Below are positions 1 through 11,543 of a DNA stretch of 11,543 bases, one piece after another. The position numbers and the translations under genes are program-made. Source of the DNA: Myxococcota bacterium (lineage in GTDB: Bacteria > Myxococcota_A > UBA9160 > SMWR01); contig JBHHVG010000054.1 of NCBI GenBank assembly GCA_046754165.1, positions 1 to 11,543 of the forward strand, given 5' to 3'. The notes beneath the pieces were generated by a model that was not told the DNA's origin, did not search any database, and saw only the letters and a program-made list of their open reading frames with translations. Each line of letters begins with the position of its first letter. The stretch's first letter is position 1.

Positions 1-95
1 TGACGGCCGTGCGAAATGGCCGGAAGATCGTGCTTCAGATCGACGGAACGAAGGATGGCTCCCGGATCGCCATCGCAGTGACCGACGCGGGCTGA
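1..95 (+). CDS. 3' end of an unidentified upstream gene, 5'-partial. The reading frame runs from nt 3, the C-terminus is ...TAVRNGRKIVLQIDGTKDGSRIAIAVTDAG*, and the TGA stop is at 93-95.
   Basis: The open frame runs to the window edge. Third-codon-position GC is high (about 24 of 30 codons), matching the coding bias of the other genes. It is convergent with the SPFH gene, whose stop is at 109-111. Only 31 codons are visible, so no family call is possible. Confidence 0.3.
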   Translation, partial: TAVRNGRKIVLQIDGTKDGSRIAIAVTDAG

Positions 96-108
96 CCCTC
101 CTCTCCGG

Positions 109-888
109 TCACTTCGACTGCTTGAAGAGGGGAAGGTTCGCCTCGGTGGCGACATAGATCACGTTGGGGTTGTCGTTGAGCGTCTTGATCCAGAGGTACT
201 GGAGGTAGGAGTCCGAGAGCGTCGACCGGACGATCTCTTGCGCGCGGGCGGCGCCCTGTGCGCGCGCGACCTCGATCTCGGCGTCCTTCTCGGCCTGCTG
301 CAGCAGGAACTGCTTCTGTTGCACGGCCTGCTCCGCGGTCAGCTTCGCCTCGATGCTCTCCCGGAAGCGCGAGGGGAGCTTGACGTCCCGCAGCAGCACG
401 TCTTCGACGCGAATGCCTCGAGGCTCGAGGTTGACCGTCAGGAACTCCTTGATCTTCGCCGCGATCTCCTTGCGCCCGACCTCGGAGTAGATGTTCTTGA
501 CCGGGTAGCCGCTCACGACGTCGCGCACCGCGTTCCGAAAGTAGGGAACGACGAGGATGTCCACGTAGTTCCAGCCGACTGTCTTGCGGATCGTCGGCGC
601 CTCCTCCGCGACGACCCGGAAGAGCAACGAGGTGTCGAGGCCCACGATCAGGCCCTCGGAAGACGGCACCTGGGCCGTCTCCTTGAGCTCCTGGAGCTTG
701 ATGTTCCAGGTCTCGATCGTGCGGACCACAGGGAACTGCAGGGCGACCCCCTGCTCCACCGGGTCGTCGGAAATGGATCCGAAGCTCTTCGTCACACCGA
801 CTTCACCATCTTCGATCACGACGCAGCCGGATACCAGCGTCAGCGCTGCGAACAGACCCAGGGCGATGATGGGGGTCAAACGATTCAT
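109..888 (-). CDS. SPFH / band-7 (prohibitin/HflC-like) domain lipoprotein, 259 aa
   Basis: This is the C-terminal part of six-frame ORF 109..2577(-). The ATG is at 888-886, preceded on the minus strand by GGAGGAGGG with a 5-nt spacer. The N-terminus MNRLTPIIALGLFAALTLVSGC is a signal peptide ending in the lipobox LVSGC. The body is an SPFH-like beta/alpha domain followed by a coiled-coil-like tail rich in E/A/Q (AEQAVQQKQFLLQQAEKDAEIEVARAQGAARAQEI), as in HflK/C and prohibitins. The stop TGA (revcomp TCA) is at 109-111. The 5' extension of the ORF beyond 888 is an R/G/A-rich shadow frame overlapping the GT gene. Confidence 0.85.
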   Translation of the reverse strand: MNRLTPIIALGLFAALTLVSGCVVIEDGEVGVTKSFGSISDDPVEQGVALQFPVVRTIETWNIKLQELKETAQVPSSEGLIVGLDTSLLFRVVAEEAPTIRKTVGWNYVDILVVPYFRNAVRDVVSGYPVKNIYSEVGRKEIAAKIKEFLTVNLEPRGIRVEDVLLRDVKLPSRFRESIEAKLTAEQAVQQKQFLLQQAEKDAEIEVARAQGAARAQEIVRSTLSDSYLQYLWIKTLNDNPNVIYVATEANLPLFKQSK

Positions 889-901
889 GGAGTCCCTCCT
901 C

Positions 902-929
902 CGAAAGGCCGATTGAATCTCGCCTTTCG
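902..929 (-). other. Intercistronic stem-loop: 8-bp perfect stem CGAAAGGC / GCCTTTCG with a 12-nt loop. It lies between the GT stop (939-941) and the SPFH Shine-Dalgarno sequence.
   Basis: Read directly: 902-909 cgaaaggc and 922-929 gcctttcg are reverse complements. On the minus-strand mRNA the hairpin ends 1 nt 5' of the GGAGGAGGG ribosome-binding site of the SPFH gene. No U-tract follows, so it is not a canonical intrinsic terminator. It is more likely an mRNA processing, stability or translation-modulating element. Confidence 0.25.
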
Positions 930-938
930 CGCCGGAGC

Positions 939-2609
939 TTACCGCACCAACGCGTCGGAGGGTGGTCGCGTGCGATCTCGCCGGCGAAAGACAGCAATCC
1001 AGGCTGCTCGGTCCGCCTGCTTCCAGGCCAACGGCATCAATCCCGTCGCCTCCGCGCCGCCCGCGAATACGTATCCGTCGCCGTCCGCTGCCGGATGGGC
1101 CACGAGCTCCACGCGATAGGCGCGCTCGAGCATCCGTCGGGTGTGCGTGAAGATCGAGTCTGGTGCCCTCGCCAGCGCGCCGGGCGCCGCTGGGGCGGCG
1201 GAGAGAGAGGTCGCCACATTGACCCAGACCACATAGAGGGGACGCGCCGCGTCCACCTCGGCCGCGACCGTGCGCTGGCGTTCTGGCGCATCCGGGAACG
1301 GCCCCGTGAGGGGGTAGAAGAAGATGTAACGGGAAGCGCTCGGACGACCGGCGTAGAACAGGATCTGTGGCTCGGAGCCGACCACGAAGACCCGATCGTC
1401 CGGATCGCTGCGGCTGCGGATGTGTTCTGCAATCCGCAGCGATTCTGGAAACGGGTTCCCGCCGTAGAGGATGCGGGCGATCCGTTCCGGCGTGTCGGCC
1501 GACAGGATCCAGGCGTTCGCGGCGACCGGCGGACCCACGGCGATCGCGACCAGGGCCCCGAGGCCCAGCACCGCCGCGCCCACGTGCCTTTCGTCGAGCC
1601 ACCGGCACGCCAGGCCACCGAGCGCCACCCCGCCCAAGGCCGCGAGGGACGGCAGCATCTGGATGAAGTAGTGGGGGCGAAAGTACAGCCCCGGCGCGAC
1701 GCCGGCGGCGGATGCCAGCAGCCACAGGCCCAGGAACCAGCGGCTGCGACCCGCACGGCCCGGCGCCATCAGGCCCAACGCGGCGGCGCCCGCGAAGGCC
1801 CCCATGCTCGGCCAGAGCACGCCCGCCGCGTTGACGAGCTCGCTCCACCCGGCTGCGGGCGAGCGGACCAGCGCGTAGCGGAAGTTGTGGAGGAGCACGG
1901 CATCGACGAAGGGGGACCAGGCACCGAGCCATGCGAACAGCCCGAGAACCGGCGCGATCACCGCCACGCCGCCCGCCGCGAGAGCCGCGATCGCGCGCAG
2001 GCGTTCGCCCGGGACGCGGCGCAGCGACGCAAACGCGATCGCCGCGACGAAGGCCGCGTTCGCGACGGCCACCTGTTTGAACAGGCACGCAGCGGCCGCA
2101 GTAGCGCCGCACAGCAGCCACCACCGGGAGGAAGACCCCGCCTCGATCGCCCGCAGCAGACAGAACACGGACGCCACCATCGGCAGCAGCATGAAGATCT
2201 CGGTGTTGGCGGCATTTGCGGTGAGGCGCGGATCGGCGCTCGCCACCGCGAAGATCAGGGCCGCGAAGGCGCCGCTCAAGGATCCGGCGAGTCGTCGCAC
2301 GAGCGCGAACAGCAGCGCGGCGGTCGCGGCGCTCCAGACGTGAAGAAAGAGATGAATGCCCTCGCTGGTCTCGCCGAACGCCGCGAAAGCCACGAGGTAT
2401 GCGACGAAGACTCCTGGCGGCTTCTGGTCGAAGACGTCGCGGTATGGGACATCCCCCGCCTGCATGCGCTGGGCGATATACGCGTACTCGCCCTCGTCGC
2501 GCTCGAGCGGCACCGGGAGCAGCGGAACGCGCAGCAGGATGAAGACCGTGGCCGCGACCGCGAGCACCGCCGCACACGCCCAGAGCGTGGGGGCCGTCTC
2601 CTCCCTCAC
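939..2609 (-). CDS. GT-C fold glycosyltransferase, PMT_2 / ArnT-like family (GT39/GT83; polyprenyl-phosphate-sugar dependent). Multi-pass membrane protein, about 556 aa from the proposed GTG start.
   Basis: Six-frame ORF 939..2783(-). The first TM helix (TLWACAAVLAVAATVFILLRV) is followed in the first extracytoplasmic loop by the GT-C catalytic acidic motif ERDEGEYAYIA and the K-P-P motif (FDQKPPGVFVAY) typical of PMT_2/ArnT proteins. There are about 11 or more further hydrophobic helices and a C-terminal soluble domain. The TAA stop is at 939-941. The start is uncertain. The ATG at 2783 would overlap the divergent lipoprotein gene (2681->) by about 100 nt. I favour the in-frame GTG at 2609-2607 (Val59 of the ORF), which is 8 aa before TM1. 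Confidence 0.8.
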   Translation of the reverse strand: MREETAPTLWACAAVLAVAATVFILLRVPLLPVPLERDEGEYAYIAQRMQAGDVPYRDVFDQKPPGVFVAYLVAFAAFGETSEGIHLFLHVWSAATAALLFALVRRLAGSLSGAFAALIFAVASADPRLTANAANTEIFMLLPMVASVFCLLRAIEAGSSSRWWLLCGATAAAACLFKQVAVANAAFVAAIAFASLRRVPGERLRAIAALAAGGVAVIAPVLGLFAWLGAWSPFVDAVLLHNFRYALVRSPAAGWSELVNAAGVLWPSMGAFAGAAALGLMAPGRAGRSRWFLGLWLLASAAGVAPGLYFRPHYFIQMLPSLAALGGVALGGLACRWLDERHVGAAVLGLGALVAIAVGPPVAANAWILSADTPERIARILYGGNPFPESLRIAEHIRSRSDPDDRVFVVGSEPQILFYAGRPSASRYIFFYPLTGPFPDAPERQRTVAAEVDAARPLYVVWVNVATSLSAAPAAPGALARAPDSIFTHTRRMLERAYRVELVAHPAADGDGYVFAGGAEATGLMPLAWKQADRAAWIAVFRRRDRTRPPSDALVR

Positions 2610-2680
2610 CGCGGCATCGGATGCGGCCGTCACGAGCCGAGGAGCTCCATCGAGAGGGATGCTAGCCTCTTCGCTCCAAG
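2610..2680. promoter_or_regulatory. Short divergent intergenic / promoter region between the GT-C gene (-) and the AP-superfamily lipoprotein operon (+)
   Basis: It is about 70 bp between the proposed starts. It contains the 8-bp palindrome GGAGCTCC (2641-2648) and an imperfect dyad GCATCgGATGC (2614-2624). The GAGGG at 2653-2657 is a possible ribosome-binding site, but its 23-nt spacing to the 2681 ATG is longer than typical. No -10/-35 assignment is attempted in this GC-rich context. Confidence 0.3.
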
Positions 2681-4105
2681 ATGGCGGAAGCGCTCCTCCG
2701 TTCGACTGCACCGGGTAGGACCCAACGGCTCCTACTCTCCCTCCCGCTTCTGCTGGTCGGCTGCACTGGAACGCCTCCGGCACCCCGGATCCTCTTGCTC
2801 GTTAGCGTCGACACCCTGCGCGCGGACCACCTCGGCGCCTACGGGGGCACACTCGGCCTCAGCCCGCGCATCGATGCACTGGCCCTCGAGAGCCTCGTCT
2901 TCGACCGGGCGTACGCCCCGACCTCGTTCACCATGCCGTCCATCAGCAGCCTTCTGACCGGGCGCTACCCGGAGGAGATCGGCGTGCTCGGCAATCGATC
3001 GGCGCTCGCGCCGGACATTCCGACCCTCGCCACCGTGTTGCGAGATCACGGATGGGCGACCGCGGCGGTCGTGAGCAACCTGGTCCTGCGCGCCAACTCG
3101 GGCTTGAGCGAGGGTTTCGATCACTACGACGATGTGCTTCCGGGCCGCGAAGCCACGCGTGAATGGTCCGAACGCATCGCCTCGGGCACGACCGACGCCG
3201 CCATCGACGTCCTCGAGGCACTGCCCGCCGACGAGGACACGCGGCTCTTCCTGTGGGTTCACTACCAGGATCCCCACGGACCCTACACGCCGCCCGATGG
3301 GCTGCGCGAGGCGCTGCTCCCGGAGCAGCGAAGACGCCCGGAAGGCCTGCGCCGCCTGACGCCGGCCGAGGGACGCGGTGTTCGCGGGCGGCTCCCGGCC
3401 TACCAGGAGATCGACGGACAGCGCGAGGTCGCCTTCTACCGCGCGGGATACGCCGCCGAGGTGCAGTATCTCGACCGCGAGTTCGGACGACTGCTCGACG
3501 CGCTCTCGGCTCGCGGGCTTGGCGACACGAGCCTCATCGTCTTCACCGCCGACCACGGCGAGAGCCTCGGTGAGCGGGATTACTGGTTTGGCCACGGCGA
3601 GCTGTTGACCGATCCGCTCGTGCGCGTTCCCCTGATGCTGCGGATCCCCGGAGGCGATGCGGGCCGGCGTTCGGATCTCGTGGCCCAGGTCGATCTCTTC
3701 CCCACGCTGCTGCATCTCCTGGAGGGGGTGGCGATCCCCGCCGACGCACGCGGCCGCGACCTGCTGGAAGCCGATGCAGGCTCCGTGGACAGTCTCCCCT
3801 ACCTGGCCAGCCTCGCGAGCTTCCACACCGCGCGATTCGGGATCGTCCTGGGAAATCACAAGCTGATCCTCGTCGAAACCGAACGCGGCTGGCGCCCGGA
3901 GCTGTACCGCCTGGGGCACGAAGACCGCGAGCTCTCCGATCTCGACCCGGAGCGCACCGAGCGCATGCGCGCCGAGCTGCTGGGGCTGCAGGCCGAGCTC
4001 CAGACCGGGCGGCGGGAGAATCTCCAGCGCTTGAGCGACCGCGATCGAAGAAACCTGGAAGCGCTCGGGTACACCGAGAAGCTTTTGGATCCGGGAGTCG
4101 ATTGA
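2681..4105 (+). CDS. Alkaline-phosphatase-superfamily 'sulfatase-like' (PF00884-type) periplasmic lipoprotein, 474 aa. Thr replaces the Cys/Ser formylglycine nucleophile, so it is probably a phosphoester hydrolase/transferase rather than a true sulfatase.
   Basis: The N-terminus MAEALLRSTAPGRTQRLLLSLPLLLVGC has the lipobox LLVGC. The metal-binding block ILLLVSVDTLRADHLGAYGG aligns with the sulfatase N-terminal block (xxLIxxDDLGxxDLGCYG). The nucleophile region PTSFTMPSISSLLTGRYP aligns with sulfatase C-x-P-x-R-AALLTGRYP, but has T-M-P-S-I in place of C-x-P-x-R. Downstream blocks WVHYQDPHGPY and FTADHGESLGERDYWFGHGE correspond to the conserved K/H and DHG metal-site blocks of the superfamily. 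The TGA stop is at 4103-4105. Confidence 0.85.
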   Translation: MAEALLRSTAPGRTQRLLLSLPLLLVGCTGTPPAPRILLLVSVDTLRADHLGAYGGTLGLSPRIDALALESLVFDRAYAPTSFTMPSISSLLTGRYPEEIGVLGNRSALAPDIPTLATVLRDHGWATAAVVSNLVLRANSGLSEGFDHYDDVLPGREATREWSERIASGTTDAAIDVLEALPADEDTRLFLWVHYQDPHGPYTPPDGLREALLPEQRRRPEGLRRLTPAEGRGVRGRLPAYQEIDGQREVAFYRAGYAAEVQYLDREFGRLLDALSARGLGDTSLIVFTADHGESLGERDYWFGHGELLTDPLVRVPLMLRIPGGDAGRRSDLVAQVDLFPTLLHLLEGVAIPADARGRDLLEADAGSVDSLPYLASLASFHTARFGIVLGNHKLILVETERGWRPELYRLGHEDRELSDLDPERTERMRAELLGLQAELQTGRRENLQRLSDRDRRNLEALGYTEKLLDPGVD

Positions 4106-4112
4106 CGGCGCC

Positions 4113-5537
4113 ATGTCCGCACCTTGCCCGTCCGTCCGGAAGCGCCGATCCGCCCCCGCGCGGATCCGCGCCACGCTGGCCGCGTTCGTTCTCCTGCCCG
4201 CTTGTGCGGGTGAACCGGCGCGACCGAACCTGCTGCTGTTGATCACCGTGGACACGCTGCGCGCAGATCGCCTCGGCGCGTTCGGAAGCTCTCTGGGCCT
4301 CACTCCCAATCTCGACGCGCTCGCCGCCCGAAGCGAAGTGTTCACCGCCGCCTATTCCTCCGCTCCCTTCACGCTTCCGTCCGTCGCCGCGATGATGACG
4401 GGCGCCTCCCCAGAAGAGCTCGGCATCGTCGACAACGAATCGGTGCTCCAGGAGACCTTCCCGACACTCGCGTCCATTCTGTGGGAACGCGGCTGGACCA
4501 CCCGGGGCATCGTGGGAAACTTCATTCTGCGCCACAGCAGCGGTATCGACCGGGGCTTCGAACAGTTCGACGACGACTTCGGCCAGTTCGAAGCGGTGCG
4601 GAAGCTGCCGGAACGCGTCGCGGTTTTCACCACCGAAGGCGCCTTGTCCGGACTCGACCAGTGCTCCGCGGCTCCGGCGACACGCTGTTTCATCTGGGTC
4701 CACTACCAGGACCCCCACGGACCCTACACGGCACCGGGAGAGATCCTCGATGCAGAGCTCGAACGGGGGATCGAGCCGCCGGTGCCGAATCCGAACGTTC
4801 CACTGTCGAAGGACCACCTCGGGGTGGGCGGGCTTCCGACCTATCAGGTGCTCGGCGACCACCGCGACGCCGCCTACTACGTCGCGGCCTACCACGCCGA
4901 GATCCGATACGTCGACCGCGAGATCGGACGACTGCTGGACGGGCTCGCGACCCGCGGGCTCGACGCCAGCTCCGTGATCGCGTTCAGCTCGGATCACGGC
5001 GAAGGCCTGGGCGAAGACGACTACTGGTTCGCCCACGGCGAGTACCTGAGCGACGCATTGGTCCGGGTGCCGCTCATGATCCGGGTCCCCGGACGCCCGC
5101 CTGCGGTGCGAACCGACGTGGCCGCGCTCACGGATCTACCCAAGACACTGCTGTCCGCGGTCGGAGCAACCGCACCGGTGCCGCCGCTGGCCGGCCGGGA
5201 CCTGCTCGGCGACGGCGCCGAGAATTCCGAGAGCCGACCCTACATGGCGAACCTCATCGGAGCGACCGGGATCCGCTTCGGGATCGTCGAAGGGGAGTAC
5301 AAGCTGGTGATCACGATGCGCGACGGCGTCTGGGACGGGCGCCTGACGCGCCGCGGCCGCGACGCCATCGACCTCGCCGGAGCGGCCCCCCAGGTCGCCG
5401 CTCCGATGCGCAAGCACCTGAAGCAGATCCGCGCACGCGTGTCCCAGGGGCCGTCGGAGGTCCGCCAGGACCTGTCCACGCAGGACCGCGACGCCCTGCG
5501 CGCCCTCGGTTATCTCGAATCCGCGGAGGGCCGGTGA
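4113..5537 (+). CDS. Second, tandem paralogous AP-superfamily 'sulfatase-like' lipoprotein, also 474 aa, with Thr at the nucleophile position
   Basis: The ATG is at 4113, 7 nt after the upstream stop. The N-terminus ...ATLAAFVLLPACAG has the lipobox LLPAC. The same blocks are present: LLLLITVDTLRADRLGAFGS, APFTLPSVAAMMTG (T-L-P-S-V at the nucleophile site), WVHYQDPHGPY and FSSDHGEGLGEDDYWFAHGE. It is roughly 45-50% identical to the upstream gene over its full length, and both end in ...LGY(T/L)E.... The TGA stop is at 5535-5537. Confidence 0.85.
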   Translation: MSAPCPSVRKRRSAPARIRATLAAFVLLPACAGEPARPNLLLLITVDTLRADRLGAFGSSLGLTPNLDALAARSEVFTAAYSSAPFTLPSVAAMMTGASPEELGIVDNESVLQETFPTLASILWERGWTTRGIVGNFILRHSSGIDRGFEQFDDDFGQFEAVRKLPERVAVFTTEGALSGLDQCSAAPATRCFIWVHYQDPHGPYTAPGEILDAELERGIEPPVPNPNVPLSKDHLGVGGLPTYQVLGDHRDAAYYVAAYHAEIRYVDREIGRLLDGLATRGLDASSVIAFSSDHGEGLGEDDYWFAHGEYLSDALVRVPLMIRVPGRPPAVRTDVAALTDLPKTLLSAVGATAPVPPLAGRDLLGDGAENSESRPYMANLIGATGIRFGIVEGEYKLVITMRDGVWDGRLTRRGRDAIDLAGAAPQVAAPMRKHLKQIRARVSQGPSEVRQDLSTQDRDALRALGYLESAEGR

Positions 5538-7765
5538 CATCTCGGAGCGGCGAGGGAACACCGCTTCGACGCGCACTCGCGGCGGGACGCTCCCGCGACG
5601 CCGCGATCGCCCTGGCCCTCTGCGCCCTCACCTTCGCCGTCTACTTCCAGGTGCGAAACCACGCGTTCGTCGACTACGACGATCGCGTGTACATCCTCGA
5701 CAACCCCAACCTGCGCGATGGACCGAGCCTGAAGACGATCGCGCGCTCGTTCCGCGAGCCCTACGAGACCAACTGGATCCCCCTGACGTGGGTCTCGCTC
5801 CAGCTGGATCACGCCCTGTTCGGCTCCGAGCCAGCGGGCTACCTGCTCGAGAACGTCGCGTTGCACGCGCTGTCGGCCCTGCTGTTGTACCTGGCGCTTG
5901 CGCGAATGACGGGCGCACGGTGGCCCAGCTGCTTCGTCGCCGCCGTCTTCGCGGTGCACCCCCTTCACGTAGAGAGCGTGGCGTGGGCCGCCGAGCGCAA
6001 GGACACGCTCAGCGGGATGTTCTGGATGGCCACCATGGTCGCCTACGCGCACCACGCCGCGCGTCCGGGGATGGGGCGCATGGCCCTGGTGGCGGCGAGC
6101 TTCTCGGCCGGCTTGATGGCGAAGCCCATGCTGGTCTCGCTGCCCCTGGTACTGCTGCTGCTCGACCACTGGCCGCTGGGCCGGCTCCGACGCGATAAGA
6201 GCGGAGCCTTCCCGCCGGCTGGCGGGCCGCGCCGCGTCCTGCTCGAGAAGCTCCCGCTGTTCGCACTTGCCGGCGCCGCGAGCGCCGTCACCCTCGCTGT
6301 GCAGCGCGCGGCGGGCGCGATGTCCCACGACCACCTGCTGCCGCTGTCGGTGCGGCTGTCGAACGCGGTGGTCTCGTACGCCGCCTACCTCCGCGACAGC
6401 CTCTGGCCGGTCGACCTCGCCGTCTTCTACCCGCACCCGCTCAGCCTGCCGCCGCCCGGGACGCTCCTGGTCGCGTCGTCGCTGCTGGTGGGGATCAGCG
6501 CGCTGGCCCTCCGCTGGGCCGGGACGCGGCCGTACTTCGCCGTGGGTTGGCTGTGGTTCCTCCTGACCCTCGTGCCGGTGATCGGAATCGTGCAGGCCGG
6601 CATGCAGGCCCGCGCCGACCGCTACACCTACCTGCCGCAGATCGGGCTGACGATCGCCGCGGCGTGGGGCGCGCACGAAGCCAGCCGCAGCAGGGCTCTG
6701 CGACGCGTTCTGGCCGCCGTAGGAGCCGGCGCCATCGCCGCGCTGGCGGTCACCGCGTGGAACCAGGTCGGACACTGGCGCGATTCGCGCGCACTGTTCG
6801 CCCGGGCGGTCTCTGTTACGCAAGACAACTTCGTTGCCCATCACGGGCTGGGTGAGGCGCTGCTCGAAGCGGGCGACCCCGAGGCTGCGCTCGCGCAGTT
6901 CCTTCGGGCCCGAGCGATCAAGCCGCGCTGGCCCGATGCCCGCGTCGGTGAGGCGGATGCTCGGCTGGCGCTTGGCCAGCTGGAGCCCGCGCTGGAAGGC
7001 TATCGGCGTGCCCTCGAGCTCGACCCGACGCACGCGACGGCGCTCGCGAAGTCTGGGCGGGCGCTCGCTGCGAGCGGACGGACGGACGAGGCGATCCAGC
7101 ACTACCGACGCGCCCTGCGTCTGTTCGGAGACGCCCCGCCGGCCGCGCTCCACGCCTACCTCGGAGCCGCGTTGGCCGACATCGGGGACGACGCCGGGGC
7201 CGAGCAGCAGTTCGAACGGGCGATCGCGATCCGACCGGATTACGCCCGGGCCCACCACTACCTGGGAATGATGCGGCTGCGGACCGGCCGGTTCTCCGAC
7301 GCCCGCGAGCCCCTGCGGATTGCCGCGTCCCTGCTCGGTGAGTCCGCGGAGCTGCACGCCAGCCAGGCTGCCGCCGCGCGTGGCGCCGGGGACGCCCGTG
7401 CCGCACTGGAGCATTACCGCGCCGCTCGGCGCCTGCGCCCGGGCTGGGAAGTCGCCGCGAACAACCTCGCCTGGATCCTCGCGACCCATCCCGACGCGAA
7501 CATCCGCGACCCAGCGGAAGCGGTCCGCATCGCCGAGACGCTCCAGCGCGCCGGTGGCGCGGCCGATCCGCTCCGGTACGACACGTTGGCCGCGGCCTAC
7601 GCGGCCGCCGGACAGTTCGAGCGCGCCGCGCGAACCGCGGCCGAGGCTGCCCGGCTGGCGCGCCGCGATGGTCCGGAAGACCTCATCGTCCAGATCGAGG
7701 AGCGCGCGGCCGGCTACCGGTCGAACCGGCCTTTCATCGATCCCGAGTGGCTCCGAGGCGACTGA
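5534..7765 (+). CDS. TMTC-like GT-C glycosyltransferase: N-terminal DUF1736-type multi-TM domain (about 400 aa) fused to C-terminal TPR repeats (about 340 aa). About 743 aa in total.
   Basis: This is the 3' part of six-frame ORF 4481..7765(+). Its first ~350 aa are an R/P/G-rich shadow frame overlapping the paralog gene. I propose GTG 5534-5536 as the start. It overlaps the upstream TGA (GTGA coupling), and GGAGG at 5525-5529 gives a 4-nt spacer. TM1 is AIALALCALTFAVYFQV. It is followed by the loop-1 acidic motif AFVDYDDRVYILDNPNL (the GT-C DD motif). Then come ...LLENVALHALSALLLYL... and FAVHPLHVESVAWAAERKDTL, the hallmark P-x-H-V-E-S-V-A-W block of DUF1736/TMTC proteins. From about residue 430 there are at least 8 TPR-like 34-aa units (e.g. 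AHHGLGEALLEAGDPEAALAQFLRARAIKP..., AHHYLGMMRLRTGRFSDA...). The TGA stop is at 7763-7765. Confidence 0.8.
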   Translation: MTSRSGEGTPLRRALAAGRSRDAAIALALCALTFAVYFQVRNHAFVDYDDRVYILDNPNLRDGPSLKTIARSFREPYETNWIPLTWVSLQLDHALFGSEPAGYLLENVALHALSALLLYLALARMTGARWPSCFVAAVFAVHPLHVESVAWAAERKDTLSGMFWMATMVAYAHHAARPGMGRMALVAASFSAGLMAKPMLVSLPLVLLLLDHWPLGRLRRDKSGAFPPAGGPRRVLLEKLPLFALAGAASAVTLAVQRAAGAMSHDHLLPLSVRLSNAVVSYAAYLRDSLWPVDLAVFYPHPLSLPPPGTLLVASSLLVGISALALRWAGTRPYFAVGWLWFLLTLVPVIGIVQAGMQARADRYTYLPQIGLTIAAAWGAHEASRSRALRRVLAAVGAGAIAALAVTAWNQVGHWRDSRALFARAVSVTQDNFVAHHGLGEALLEAGDPEAALAQFLRARAIKPRWPDARVGEADARLALGQLEPALEGYRRALELDPTHATALAKSGRALAASGRTDEAIQHYRRALRLFGDAPPAALHAYLGAALADIGDDAGAEQQFERAIAIRPDYARAHHYLGMMRLRTGRFSDAREPLRIAASLLGESAELHASQAAAARGAGDARAALEHYRAARRLRPGWEVAANNLAWILATHPDANIRDPAEAVRIAETLQRAGGAADPLRYDTLAAAYAAAGQFERAARTAAEAARLARRDGPEDLIVQIEERAAGYRSNRPFIDPEWLRGD

Positions 7766-9206
7766 TCTCTGCCCTCGACTCCCACAGCGAGCCGACACAC
7801 GCCATCACCAGGTTCACGACCAGCCCGATCACGCCGAGGTGGACACCTTCGATGCGCTTTACTCCCAGCACCACACCGCCCACCACGATCGCGCTGCCGA
7901 CCACCAGCCCGGCGAGGGCGGGGCGCGCCTTCAGCCGGCGCCAATGAATCGCCAATAGGAAGGCCGGGGCACACTGGATCAGGAGCTCCATCTTGAGTTC
8001 GATGAGCCCCCACAGCGTGATGCCCCGCGCCCACATGGCGAGCCCGGCCATTGCGACCATCACCACCGCGGCAATCCGCTTGCCCGCCGCGGTGGTCGCG
8101 TCATCGTCTCGCGGGCGATCGAGAACGTCGCCCGCCAGTGTCGAGCCCAACGACAGCAGGCACGAATCCGCGGTCGACATGATCGCGGCCAGCGCACCCA
8201 GGAAGACGAAGGTCGCCGCCGCCGCGTGGGCGGTTCCGGCGTCCGCCCACTGCCCGAGCAGCAGCGGCATCACGCGATCCGCCTCGACCACCCCAAGGCC
8301 GGACAGGCGCGGAATCGCGGCCCAGCCGATCCAGGTGACGACGAGCGTGGTCGTGAGCGGCATGAACGTCATCAGCGCGAGCGAACGGCGCAGGGTCGCC
8401 CCGTCGCGCGCCGCGTAGATCCGTTGGATCGCCTGGGGATAGATCACGCTTGCGATTCCCAGCAGCACGATGGTGCTCGCCCAGTTCGTCTGCTCCACGA
8501 TGCCCGGCACGCGCCCGACCTCGGGCCGAACCTCGAGGACCGCGCGGGTAACCGCCCCGACCCCACCCGCCTCCGCCTGCAGCCACGCCGCCAGCGCCAT
8601 CAGACCCACCAACATCATCACGCCCTGGGCGGCGTCCGTCCAGGCGACGGCGCGCATCCCTCCCAACGTCTCGTAGAAGAGGATCATGGCCGCCAGGATG
8701 ACGATGCCGAGCTCGTAGGGGATGGCGCCGCCCGTCACCTGTGCAGCGAGCTCGCCCATGGCCTTGAGCTGGGCGAAGAGGAAGTTGGCCAGCGCGATCG
8801 ACATCAGCACCGCGACGCCCTGCAGCAGGCCCTTCGCGCCCGGTTCGCCCCGAAATCGGTGTCGCACCCAGTCGCCCGGCGTCACGAACCGATGCCGGAC
8901 AGCCACGGGACGGAGCTTCGGCACGAGCGAGTGGAAGACGACAATGATCGACATCATGAACCCGGTCGCCATGACCCACGAGTAACCGCGGCGGTACCCC
9001 TCGCCCGGGTAGCCGAGCAGCGAGTTCCCGCTGTAGGCGGTGGCGTAGAGCGTGAGGAAGAGCACGAATACGCCGAGCTCACGACCACCGAGGAAATGAT
9101 CGGCAGGCGCGTTGCCACGCCGCGCACGGCGCGCGAACTCCGCGATCGCGAACAGCAGCAGCAGGTAACCCGCGAGACCGACGAGGCCCAGCTGCTCGAG
9201 CTTCAT
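7734..9206 (-). CDS. Sodium:solute symporter family (SSF, TC 2.A.21) transporter, 490 aa. Substrate unknown.
   Basis: There are about 13 hydrophobic helices. The N-terminal region DHFLGGRELGVFVLFLTLYATAYSGNSLLGYPGEGY matches the SSF signature region of PutP/PanF-like transporters (D-x-F-L-A-G-R-x-L-G ... S-G ... G-x-P-G). The ATG is at 9206-9204, with GAGGAG about 15 nt upstream on the minus strand. The stop is at 7734-7736. The gene overlaps the convergent TMTC-like gene end by about 32 nt. Confidence 0.85.
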   Translation of the reverse strand: MKLEQLGLVGLAGYLLLLFAIAEFARRARRGNAPADHFLGGRELGVFVLFLTLYATAYSGNSLLGYPGEGYRRGYSWVMATGFMMSIIVVFHSLVPKLRPVAVRHRFVTPGDWVRHRFRGEPGAKGLLQGVAVLMSIALANFLFAQLKAMGELAAQVTGGAIPYELGIVILAAMILFYETLGGMRAVAWTDAAQGVMMLVGLMALAAWLQAEAGGVGAVTRAVLEVRPEVGRVPGIVEQTNWASTIVLLGIASVIYPQAIQRIYAARDGATLRRSLALMTFMPLTTTLVVTWIGWAAIPRLSGLGVVEADRVMPLLLGQWADAGTAHAAAATFVFLGALAAIMSTADSCLLSLGSTLAGDVLDRPRDDDATTAAGKRIAAVVMVAMAGLAMWARGITLWGLIELKMELLIQCAPAFLLAIHWRRLKARPALAGLVVGSAIVVGGVVLGVKRIEGVHLGVIGLVVNLVMACVGSLWESRAEISRLGATRDR

Positions 9207-9442
9207 CGCGGCCCGGGCTCCTCGGGCGAATCATCGTCCGATACTTCGGCGAGCAACCAGGCGGCGGCGTTCAGCACGGCGACCGCCGCGTAGCAGAGGA
9301 TCGCGACGGCGACCCAGTCGGGGAGGCCATGCCATAGGCGCACCTCCGCGCCGGGGGAGCGGTACCACGGAATCGACACGACGTAGAGCACCGCGATCAC
9401 CGCGAGCAGCGCGCGGCGAAGCTGGCGTCGACCCCGCGTCAC
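9203..9442 (-). CDS. Small two-TM membrane protein (DUF3311-like accessory protein of sodium:solute symporters), about 79 aa
   Basis: This is the C-terminal part of six-frame ORF 9203..9985(-). It has two clear hydrophobic helices, LLAVIAVLYVVSIPWY and WVAVAILCYAAVAVLNAAAWLL, and an acidic tail. Its TGA (9205-9203) overlaps the symporter ATG (9206-9204) as ATGA. The proposed GTG start at 9442-9440 overlaps the SRAP TGA (9441-9439) as GTGA. The alternative ATG at 9487 would give 94 aa and overlap SRAP by 49 nt. The upstream remainder of the ORF is R/G/P-rich shadow sequence. The DUF3311 assignment rests on size, topology and position next to an SSF gene, not on a recognisable motif. Confidence 0.55.
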   Translation of the reverse strand: MTRGRRQLRRALLAVIAVLYVVSIPWYRSPGAEVRLWHGLPDWVAVAILCYAAVAVLNAAAWLLAEVSDDDSPEEPGPR

Positions 9443-10131
9443 AACAGCGATCCCTGGGTGGGCGCCGGAGCGGCCGGAAGGACACATTCTGGGCCGTCGT
9501 TTCGCACGTCGTTCACCATTATTCCCACCGTCCAGGCCGACAGCCACGTCTCCGGACAAGGCGCGAGCAGCGCGCGCATCGCCTGCAGATCGCCACCCTC
9601 GGTTTCGAGCCACGGCGCGTACGCCTGGGGATCCACGATCACCGGCATCCGCTGGTGGATCGGCCGCACCACCGCGTTCGCCACGGTGGTGACGATCGTG
9701 CACGACCGGATCTCCTCGCCATCCGGGGAGATCCAGCTCTCCCAGAGACCGGCGAGGGCGAACAGCGCTCCGTCCGTCCGGGCGACGTGGACCGGCTGCT
9801 TCGGGGGCTCCGTCCCGGACCACTCGTAGAAACCGTCGGCCGGGATCAGGCAGCGCCGTGCTCGAAAGGCGCCGCGGAAGGCCGGCTTCTCCGCGATCGT
9901 CTCCGCCCGCGCGTTGATCAGGCGGTTCCCGATCGACGGGTCCTTCGCCCAGGCGGGGATCAGACCCCAGCTGTGGAGAGCGCACACGCGTCTGCTCCCC
10001 TCGGCACGGATCACGGCGACCGGCTGACCGGGAGCGATGTTGTAACGTGCCTCCAGCTCGGGCGGCAGATCGAGTCCGAATTCATCGGCCACGCTTTCCG
10101 GTGACGCGCGCAATGTGAATCGCCCGCACAA
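9439..10131 (-). CDS. SOS-response-associated peptidase (SRAP / YedK / HMCES-like) abasic-site processing protein, 230 aa
   Basis: The N-terminus is (M)CGRFTL..., with the invariant Cys2 nucleophile. Conserved core blocks are present: NIAPGQPVAVIR, FRARRCLIPADGFYEW (catalytic Glu region) and VANAVVRPIHQRMPVIV (catalytic His). The initiation codon is TTG (10131-10129, revcomp CAA). It has a strong GGAGG ribosome-binding site with a 9-nt spacer on the minus strand. The TGA stop is at 9441-9439. Confidence 0.85.
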   Translation of the reverse strand: MCGRFTLRASPESVADEFGLDLPPELEARYNIAPGQPVAVIRAEGSRRVCALHSWGLIPAWAKDPSIGNRLINARAETIAEKPAFRGAFRARRCLIPADGFYEWSGTEPPKQPVHVARTDGALFALAGLWESWISPDGEEIRSCTIVTTVANAVVRPIHQRMPVIVDPQAYAPWLETEGGDLQAMRALLAPCPETWLSAWTVGIMVNDVRNDGPECVLPAAPAPTQGSLL

Positions 10132-10193
10132 GAGTAACGACCTCCGCGCTGCAGCTGCTACAGTACCGCGTCCAAAACGCAGGGGAGAAGGCG
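10132..10193. promoter_or_regulatory. 62-bp divergent intergenic region between SRAP operon (-) and DUF368 gene (+), with a dyad-symmetric element CTGCAGCTGCTACAG (10149-10163; core palindrome GCAGCTGC 10151-10158)
   Basis: Read directly from the sequence. The 15-mer matches its own reverse complement at 12 of 15 positions and has CTG...CAG ends, loosely reminiscent of SOS/LexA-type CTGT-N8-ACAG boxes. It is not a canonical match, and the spacer is 7 nt rather than 8. The ribosome-binding sites for both flanking genes lie within this region. Confidence 0.3.
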
Positions 10194-11204
10194 TTGAGCG
10201 ATTCCACAGAACGCGCCCGCGTTGGCGGCAAGCTGTCGGTCGTGCTGCGCGGCGCCCTGGGCGGCACCTTGATGGGTCTCGCCAACCTGGTGCCCGGCAT
10301 CAGTGGCGGCACGATGTTGCTCGCCGCGGGCGTCTATCCGGGTTTCATCGAGGCGATCGCAGACCTCACGACCTTCCGCTTCCGCCTGCGGCCCGTGCTG
10401 CTGCTGGGGACGATCGTCGCGGCGGCCGCCTTCGGCATCCTGTTGCTCGCGGGCACCGTCAAGTCCCTCGTCGTCGAGCACCGCTGGATCATGTACAGCC
10501 TGTTCATTGGCCTGACCCTGGGCGGCGTGCCGCTGGTGTGGCGCATGGCGCGCCCGGCAACGCCCGCCCTCTCTGCCGGCTGCGTCGTCGCCTTCGGTCT
10601 CATGCTCGCGATGGCCCTCGGCGGCCCGGCGGCGAGCGCCGGGGGGACCAGCATGCTCCTGACGTTTGCGGCCGGTCTCGCCGCCTCCTCTGCGATGATC
10701 CTGCCCGGCGTGAGCGGCGGCTACCTGCTGCTCCTGCTGGGCCAGTACGAGACGATCTTGGGGACCGTCGATCAGCTCAAACGGGGGCTGCTCGGCGACG
10801 GCGCCGCCGGGCCCGACGTGTCGCTGGTCCTCGACGCCATGACCGTGGTGCTCCCCCTCGGTCTCGGCATCGTGGTCGGCGTGGCCGGCGTGAGCAATCT
10901 GCTGAAGTGGCTGTTGCACCGCTACGAGAAGGCGACACTCGGGGCCCTTCTGGGCCTGCTCTTCGGAGCGGTCATCGGACTCTGGCCCTTCCAACAGGGA
11001 ACCACTCCGGAGATCGGAGACACGATCAAGGGCCGAGTCGTCGCCGAGGACAACCTCGCGGAGTTCGCCCCGGAGGACTGGCCGGTGCGGAGCTTCGATC
11101 CCAGCTTCGGACAGGCCGCCGGAGCCGCGGGACTGGTCGTCCTGGGACTGTCGGCCACGCTGCTGATCGGTCGCCTCGGCGGTGGAGATGGAGACGCGGC
11201 CTAG
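10194..11204 (+). CDS. DUF368 family membrane protein (PopT-like polyprenyl/undecaprenyl-phosphate translocase family), 336 aa
   Basis: The TTG start is at 10194, with GGGGAG 7 nt upstream. There are two internal repeats of the DUF368 signature: LRGALGGTLMGLANLVPGISGGTMLLAAG in the N-terminal half and SAMILPGVSGGYLLLLLGQYE in the C-terminal half. This matches the inverted-repeat architecture of the family. There are about 8 or more hydrophobic helices. The TAG stop is at 11202-11204. Confidence 0.85.
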   Translation: MSDSTERARVGGKLSVVLRGALGGTLMGLANLVPGISGGTMLLAAGVYPGFIEAIADLTTFRFRLRPVLLLGTIVAAAAFGILLLAGTVKSLVVEHRWIMYSLFIGLTLGGVPLVWRMARPATPALSAGCVVAFGLMLAMALGGPAASAGGTSMLLTFAAGLAASSAMILPGVSGGYLLLLLGQYETILGTVDQLKRGLLGDGAAGPDVSLVLDAMTVVLPLGLGIVVGVAGVSNLLKWLLHRYEKATLGALLGLLFGAVIGLWPFQQGTTPEIGDTIKGRVVAEDNLAEFAPEDWPVRSFDPSFGQAAGAAGLVVLGLSATLLIGRLGGGDGDAA

Positions 11205-11412
11205 ACGCCCGGGCGGAGACCGGCCAGTTGCCACGAAAGGCCGAAAAACTCCACTTCTTCGGAATTTCTTCACCCCATCACGGCCGCGCAACGAGCGTCC
11301 CTGCCCCCGCGCGAGCGTTGGCGAAAGCGCTGGTCGCGTCCCTCGTGAGCGACCGCGCACGCTTCTTGCAACGACCCTGTCGGGGGGATACGAAGTTTCC
11401 CGAGGGAGTTGT

Positions 11413-11543
11413 ATGCGACGCCGAAAAACGATTTCCGCCCGAGCCGTGCGAGTCGCACTCTCGCTTCTCGCAGCGAGCTCGCTCGGCTGCTTCGCCTACG
11501 GCCACGGCGACACGCACGTCACGGAGACGCCGATCGTCAACAC
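11413..11543 (+). CDS. Putative lipoprotein, 3'-truncated by the window end; function unknown
   Basis: ATG at 11413 is preceded by GAGGGAG (11403-11409). The N-terminus MRRRKTISARAVRVALSLLAASSLGCFAYGHGDTHVTETPIVN has a positively charged n-region, a hydrophobic core and the lipobox SSLGC. Only 43 codons are visible. Confidence 0.5.
   Translation, partial: MRRRKTISARAVRVALSLLAASSLGCFAYGHGDTHVTETPIVN

Follow-up and report, generated by a model that had tools for sequence, protein, structure and literature searches.

Tandem threonine-type, sulfatase-like lipoproteins beside GT-C glycosyltransferases in a Myxococcota genome

Two genes that stand side by side in a Myxococcota genome encode proteins of a kind that public databases label 'sulfatase' or 'arylsulfatase A-like enzyme', and both proteins are most likely something other than formylglycine (FGly) sulfatases. 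The genes lie in an 11,543-nucleotide stretch of DNA (assembly GCA_046754165.1, contig JBHHVG010000054.1, positions 1 to 11,543 of the forward strand), which we call the window. Paralog A (2681..4105, + strand) and paralog B (4113..5537, + strand) are each 474 amino acids long and share 44% identity over 461 amino acids (E 2e-122). Judged from their residues, the chemistry of both is most likely threonine-mediated phosphoryl transfer with one or two metals. Our favoured reading, which we hold to be probable, is that A and B are a lipid-anchored periplasmic pair of such enzymes that acts, together with GT-C glycosyltransferases, on a glycoconjugate or protein of the envelope. An original prediction, made from the sequence alone, had foreseen the sulfatase label as a miscall. 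That Pfam family PF00884 holds threonine proteins that are not sulfatases is already published; the GT-C context is new, and the original prediction had missed it.

A threonine in place of formylglycine

Both paralogs match PF00884 (Sulfatase) along nearly its whole length, with 141.3 bits for A and 134.9 bits for B (profile positions 3-300 of 301) against a gathering cut-off of 25 bits. The signature that matters reads T84-M-P-S-I88 in A (2930..2944, +), followed by SSLLTGRYP, so that Thr stands at the nucleophile position and Ile where the FGly motif has Arg. In B it reads T87-L-P-S-V91 (4371-4385, +), followed by AAMMTGASP. The original prediction was built on this tandem pair and these two motifs; the open reading frames, their positions and the identity between the paralogs all confirmed it.

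The phmmer alignments to solved FGly sulfatases (6hhm, 7oz8, 5fql and 5g2v) match T84 of A to the Cys/FGly and I88 to the Arg. The residues that bind sulfate have gone as well. S132 and V135 of A stand opposite the GKW-H Lys and His in the 5g2v alignment, with a one-residue gap between them, and G304 falls on the Lys that comes after DHG in the 6hhm and 5fql alignments. We aligned 149 relatives for a family profile and then aligned all 270 retrieved relatives, comprising 292 domain instances, to that profile. Every non-gap case in the nucleophile column is Thr (270/270), with no Cys and no Ser. In the Arg column the residue is V, I, L, M or H and never Arg, and the two Lys-equivalent columns that were checked (S132 and G304) never hold Lys. 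The claim that Thr sits at the nucleophile position with the Arg absent therefore stands both against the solved sulfatases and in the profile alignment of the clade. On these alignments the replacement of Cys/FGly by Thr is a property of the whole clade rather than chance, and with the nucleophile, the Arg and the sulfate-binding Lys and His all replaced, A and B are most likely not FGly sulfatases. The arylsulfatase and choline-sulfatase equivalog models of NCBIfam are not reached by the pair, which scores 119-125 bits against cut-offs of 433-481. A precedent was published in 2016: about half of the PF00884 seed (30 of 59 sequences) has Thr, and false sulfatase annotation is the result (PMC5066984).

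A sulfatase scaffold with the residues of a phosphoethanolamine transferase

By profile and by fold, the nearest solved relatives of A and B are S1 sulfatases and phosphonate monoester hydrolases, and the two-subdomain sulfatase fold is present. A comparison with known enzymes, in which the figures are unlabelled, sets S1 sulfatases and phosphonate monoester hydrolases at 30-35, PbgA/YejM at 33.5, VP1736 at 29.2, EptC and LtaP at 28.5 each, LtaS at 26.9, EptA at 26.6, PafA at 25.9, MCR-1 at 25.4 and NPP at 24.4. This ranking marks the scaffold as sulfatase-like, and here the original prediction, which implied a place among the EptA, LtaS, OpgB and NPP clades, gave way. With the S1 sulfatases and phosphonate monoester hydrolases A and B have in common their Pfam family and their Asp and Asp-His metal ligands. 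They differ in having Thr for the Cys/Ser-derived FGly, in replacing the Arg, the GKW-H Lys and His and the Lys after DHG, and in carrying extra invariant histidines (H194, and H305 beside the sulfatase Lys position).

The predicted catalytic residues align with those of the phosphoethanolamine transferases. When the 149-sequence family profile was compared by hhalign with MCR-1 (plasmid pEC26), the match had a probability of 96.6% and paired D44 of A with E246, T84 with T285, H194 with H390, H199 with H395, D291 with D465, H292 with H466 and H305 with H478. Escherichia coli EptA gave the same mapping at 95.7%, and the DHGESLGE block is identical in both comparisons. The phosphorylated nucleophile of MCR-1 is T285 and its Zn1 ligands are E246, D465 and H466; in LptA, a second Zn is bound by the equivalents of MCR-1 H395 and H478 (PMC5031297). 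By placing T84 on T285 and on the EptA nucleophile, hhalign agrees with the original view of the Thr as a phosphotransferase trait. A sulfatase-type scaffold with the catalytic set of a phosphoethanolamine transferase makes a natural case of nucleophile exchange, FGly versus Thr, within one branch of the alkaline-phosphatase superfamily.

The residues in question are spread through the chain. In A (+ strand throughout), D44 (2810..2812), within SVDTLRAD, lies where strand beta-1 ends (DSSP strand 37-43), is predicted to bind metal 1 and is invariant in the alignment of 149 relatives. D291-H292-G-E294 (3551..3562), part of the DHGESLGE block, would supply the other metal-1 ligands. H194-Y-Q-D197-P-H199 (3260..3277) is the His/Asp block that aligns with MCR-1 H390 to H395, and H305 (3593..3595), in H305-G-E, adjoins G304. 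N105 (2993..2995) is a nearly invariant Asn in the alignments of relatives; it lies 21 residues past the Thr, a spacing that we take to be NPP-like. The set in B (+ strand) is D47 (in TVDTLRAD), H197..H202 (4701-4718), DHGE 294-297 (4992-5003) and H308 (in H308-G-E, 5034-5036). Across both the 149- and the 270-relative alignments, D44, H194, D197, H199, D291, H292, E294 and H305 are invariant or nearly so. The AlphaFold2 model of A has a mean predicted local distance difference test score (pLDDT) of 92.7; in it D44, H194 and D291 sit at strand ends and T84 at the N-terminus of helix 84-93, which, as modelled, is the usual layout of the superfamily.

A related Myxococcota locus (L086) has one ortholog of each paralog, at 57% identity compared with 46-50% across types, so the duplication is old and both copies have been maintained. 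The original prediction also held that the metal-binding blocks are intact in both proteins and that both are probably active. The blocks are indeed present in A and B, and with all catalytic residues kept and separate orthologs in a related genome, both paralogs are probably active.

Comparison with the known threonine enzymes brings out what is shared and what is not. EptA/LptA, MCR-1 and EptC resemble A and B in their Thr nucleophile and extracytoplasmic location, and have their Zn1 ligands, a His pair and a further His at equivalent positions; an HxxxxHGPxY block, like the DHGESLGE block, is common to EptA, MCR-1 and the pair. A and B differ from these enzymes in having a lipid anchor in place of the N-terminal domain of five transmembrane (TM) segments, Asp in place of the Glu ligand, and an extra C-terminal subdomain of sulfatase type. 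They score 18-26 bits with the EptA and MCR family hidden Markov models (HMMs), whose cut-offs are 500-1250. LtaS/LtaP, OpgB and GacH also have a PF00884-type domain and a Thr nucleophile and act outside the cytoplasmic membrane, but have the 5-TM anchors that A and B lack; the NCBIfam model of LtaS gives 22-31 bits with a cut-off of 970, and the NCBIfam scan lists no OpgB match for either protein. OpgB also occurs as a soluble periplasmic form. NPP and PafA (PF01663) are, like A and B, soluble proteins or lipoproteins with a Thr nucleophile and a conserved Asn after it, whereas the C-terminal half of A and B is sulfatase/EptA-like. PbgA/YejM, which NCBIfam names a lipopolysaccharide biosynthesis-modulating metalloenzyme, is a 5-TM inner-membrane protein, and its model gives A and B 15-20 bits with a cut-off of 825.

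Glycosyltransferases next door

Only 7 nucleotides separate A from B, and B runs directly into the next gene, its TGA stop sharing bases with a GTG start (GTGA). That next gene (5534..7765, +) encodes a GT-C fold membrane glycosyltransferase with C-terminal TPR repeats. A, B and the GT-C/TPR gene form an operon. Divergent from it, upstream, is a gene (939..2633, -) for a PMT_2 membrane protein, an ArnT/PMT-like GT-C enzyme with an RDEGEY loop motif (PF13231, 53 bits); it starts at a GTG at either 2633 or 2609. The N-domain of the GT-C/TPR protein has no Pfam match even at E<=5. Close homologs of the protein do give PMT_2 hits, and it carries an invariant DD loop motif and the sequence FAVHPLHVE, for which the motif quoted in TMTC3 is 'FAVHPIHT' (PMC7801869). 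Together these mark it as a TMTC/PMT-like GT-C enzyme with periplasmic TPR repeats. It resembles the TMTC/PMT protein O-mannosyltransferases in its C-terminal TPR, DD loop and FAVHP-type motif and differs from them in being bacterial and in having an N-domain of its own that Pfam does not match.

The same neighbours recur elsewhere. The order PMT_2, sulfatase-like, sulfatase-like, GT-C/TPR is repeated with both paralogs in L086, and a second related locus (L001) has a one-copy version of it. We scanned 86 loci, with flanks of up to 8-10 kb on each side, for homologs of the GT-C/TPR protein by HMM. Eight of the 86 have one within the locus, and in seven of those eight it is directly beside the sulfatase-like gene. 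These loci come from metagenome-assembled genomes labelled Myxococcota, Planctomycetota and Acidobacteriota, and four of them are Acidobacteriota loci with the genes on the same strand. In some relatives the parts are joined in one chain: P0141 joins a GT-C/TPR homolog to the Thr domain (hhalign 99.3%; HMM E 1.2e-18), and P0126 joins a homolog of the PMT_2 protein of the window to it (BLASTP E 2e-23; HMM E 4.6e-43). Both neighbouring GT-C families are thus found in fusions, and in many other relatives TPR repeats are fused to the Thr domain. A literature search found no characterised member of the clade and no description of the pairing with GT-C enzymes. We regard the GT-C coupling as the most promising lead in this work. 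Operons and fusions that bring in GT-C/TPR proteins time and again point towards an extracytoplasmic pathway of modification, so far unstudied, in phyla with few cultured members.

Two loci deserve a mention of their own. In a Planctomycetota metagenome-assembled genome (L004, 7953-15284), four tandem GT-C/TPR paralogs lie directly beside a Thr-type sulfatase-like gene, with a second such gene nearby. Upstream of the syntenic locus in L001 (1-9857) are a gene for an STT3/AglB-like oligosaccharyltransferase and three more PMT_2 genes, which suggests a larger periplasmic glycosylation island in that genome.

A working model and its rivals

How might such a pair work? We propose that a metal held by D44, D291 and H292 would activate Thr84 (Thr87 in B), which would then attack a phosphate ester, most likely a diester, to give a covalent phospho-Thr intermediate. 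A second metal or phosphate-binding site would be formed by H199 and H305, with H194, D197, N105 and E294 nearby. The phospho group would then be handed to water or to an acceptor hydroxyl. We infer the partnership with the GT-C enzymes, as we do the choice between transfer and hydrolysis. A and B and the adjoining GT-C enzymes would most likely serve one extracytoplasmic pathway, in which a substituent linked through phosphate (phosphoethanolamine or phosphoglycerol, for example) is added to or removed from an envelope glycoconjugate or a protein chosen by the TPR domain. Pairs of a GT-C enzyme and a Thr enzyme that act outside the membrane are familiar: ArnT with EptA, YfhO with LtaS, and GacL with GacH. 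Mannosyltransferases of glycosylphosphatidylinositol (GPI) synthesis likewise pair with GPI phosphoethanolamine transferases.

A bolder form of this proposal, which we consider distinctly unlikely, is that the Thr domain and the GT-C protein are one machine, split in our window and fused in P0141 and P0126. The GT-C module would replace the 5-TM donor-binding domain of EptA and LtaS, the acceptor, a protein or a glycan, would be selected by the TPR repeats, and the whole would be a hitherto undescribed periplasmic system for putting phospho-linked sugars or phospho-alcohols onto envelope proteins or for editing them there. If true, bacteria would have their own version of the way in which GT-C and phosphoethanolamine-transferase steps alternate in GPI-anchor synthesis.

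Several observations weigh against a phosphoryl-transfer pair that works with GT-C enzymes. True sulfatases, rather than any phosphotransferase, are the closer match to A and B in overall sequence and fold, and neither protein scores above the cut-off of any curated NCBIfam model. As far as their sequences tell, they have no membrane domain of the sort through which EptA and LtaS are understood to gain access to lipid donors, and their putative second metal site comes from alignment. Most of the 86 loci have no adjacent GT-C gene. In a related genome, L082/L083 keep one copy between a Band_7 gene and a symporter gene without either GT-C gene, and the context of L084 is different again. The GT-C/TPR family is also very large, so some of the adjacency could be due to chance.

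The rival we take most seriously, although we think it unlikely, is that A and B are stand-alone periplasmic phosphodiesterases or phosphatases of the PafA, NPP or PhoD-like kind, which scavenge phosphate from organic esters and have their GT-C neighbours by coincidence. Soluble lipoproteins without a membrane donor-binding domain would suit this role, as would the Thr nucleophile with its conserved Asn. The N-terminal part of the pair does match PF01663: some 70 residues, spanning the DxxRxD and TxPxx...TG region, score 52 bits in A and 65 bits in B. The best such stretch in A covers residues 38-106 only, and two stretches pass overall. The absence of adjacent GT-C genes from L082/L083 and L084 fits scavenging too, and tandem paralog arrays, usual for nutrient-acquisition enzymes, are common in the family. 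Coincidence sits poorly, however, with the translational coupling of B to the GT-C/TPR gene, with the finding of both neighbouring GT-C families fused to the Thr domain, and with the frequency of TPR fusions.

Less likely by far is that A and B, in the manner of the PbgA/YejM periplasmic domain, retain the fold as catalytically silent proteins with a binding or regulatory role. Among the 270 relatives and in both paralogs, all seven of the residues predicted to be catalytic are invariant or nearly so, which would be unexpected for a decayed site. Least credible of all is that they are true sulfatases, acting through Thr directly or through another residue converted to FGly: the best sequence and fold matches are S1 sulfatases and public annotation agrees, but the clade is without Cys or Ser at the nucleophile, without the Arg and without the sulfate-binding Lys and His, the Pfam-typed open reading frames of the window included no maturase gene, and FGly cannot arise from Thr according to the SulfAtlas authors (PMC5066984). 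The NCBIfam 'manganese-dependent arylsulfatase' was considered as an exception that does without FGly, and was rejected when the Enterococcus faecium enzyme proved to use Cys61/FGly (PMC12421950).

Predicted lipoproteins in a large, probably mislabelled clade

A and B are predicted periplasmic lipoproteins. The signal peptide of A ends in the lipobox LLVG-C28 (2681..2764, +) and that of B in LLPA-C31, and homologs conserve the lipobox; inspection of the sequences found no membrane segments beyond the signal peptide in either. The NCBI model of A (P0001) is 436 amino acids long and starts 38 codons 3' of the ATG at 2681 (window 2681-2794). This start is too late, and it removes the signal peptide and the lipobox Cys28 from the annotation. 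The original prediction had called the pair soluble lipoproteins of unusual architecture. The lipobox and the lack of a TM domain bear out the first part, and the form is indeed unusual beside the characterised Thr enzymes. Within the clade of A and B it is the typical form, since 148 of the 221 relatives with a short leader have a lipobox. Long extensions at the N-terminus occur in about 24 relatives and in some forms contain 4-5 TM segments; among relatives at about 44% identity, some carry 4-5 such segments at the N-terminus.

The clade comprises 8,605 representatives at 50% identity (E<1e-30), a count that may include true sulfatases, and is spread over metagenome-assembled genomes labelled Myxococcota, Planctomycetota, Acidobacteriota and others. 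In those three phyla the clade is probably the source of thousands of metagenomic 'arylsulfatase' calls, and miscalled members inflate estimates of sulfatase capacity for sediments and soils. Seven relatives of 900-1,550 amino acids (P0174, P0180, P0215, P0229, P0232, P0236 and P0270) have two Thr-type domains per chain, often with the motif T-L-P-S-H. P0180 has many TPR repeats and is the only one with TPR hits among the three double-domain relatives that were scanned.

The rest of the window

The window has a G+C content of about 70%, and Rfam, tRNA and tandem-repeat scans across it found nothing. It opens with a gene for a Band_7 lipoprotein (109-930, -), typed from the open reading frame list and Pfam. 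Beyond the GT-C/TPR gene are genes for a sodium:solute symporter, a small membrane protein, an SRAP peptidase and a VCA0040-like (DUF368) protein. The symporter gene (stop 7734) and the GT-C/TPR gene (stop 7765) are convergent, and their 3' ends share 32 bases (7734-7765). The small membrane open reading frame (9203-9485, -), of about 80-94 amino acids, sits between the genes for the symporter and the SRAP peptidase and gave no significant match in Pfam; its position is kept in L001, L082 and L086, where it is 76-86 amino acids long. The whole block of symporter, small open reading frame, SRAP peptidase and DUF368/VCA0040-like (undecaprenyl-phosphate translocase-like) genes (window 7734-11204) is syntenic in all the related Myxococcota loci (L001, L082 and L086). 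Between Band_7 and this block the content differs by genome, from none to two GT-C genes and from one to two sulfatase-like genes.

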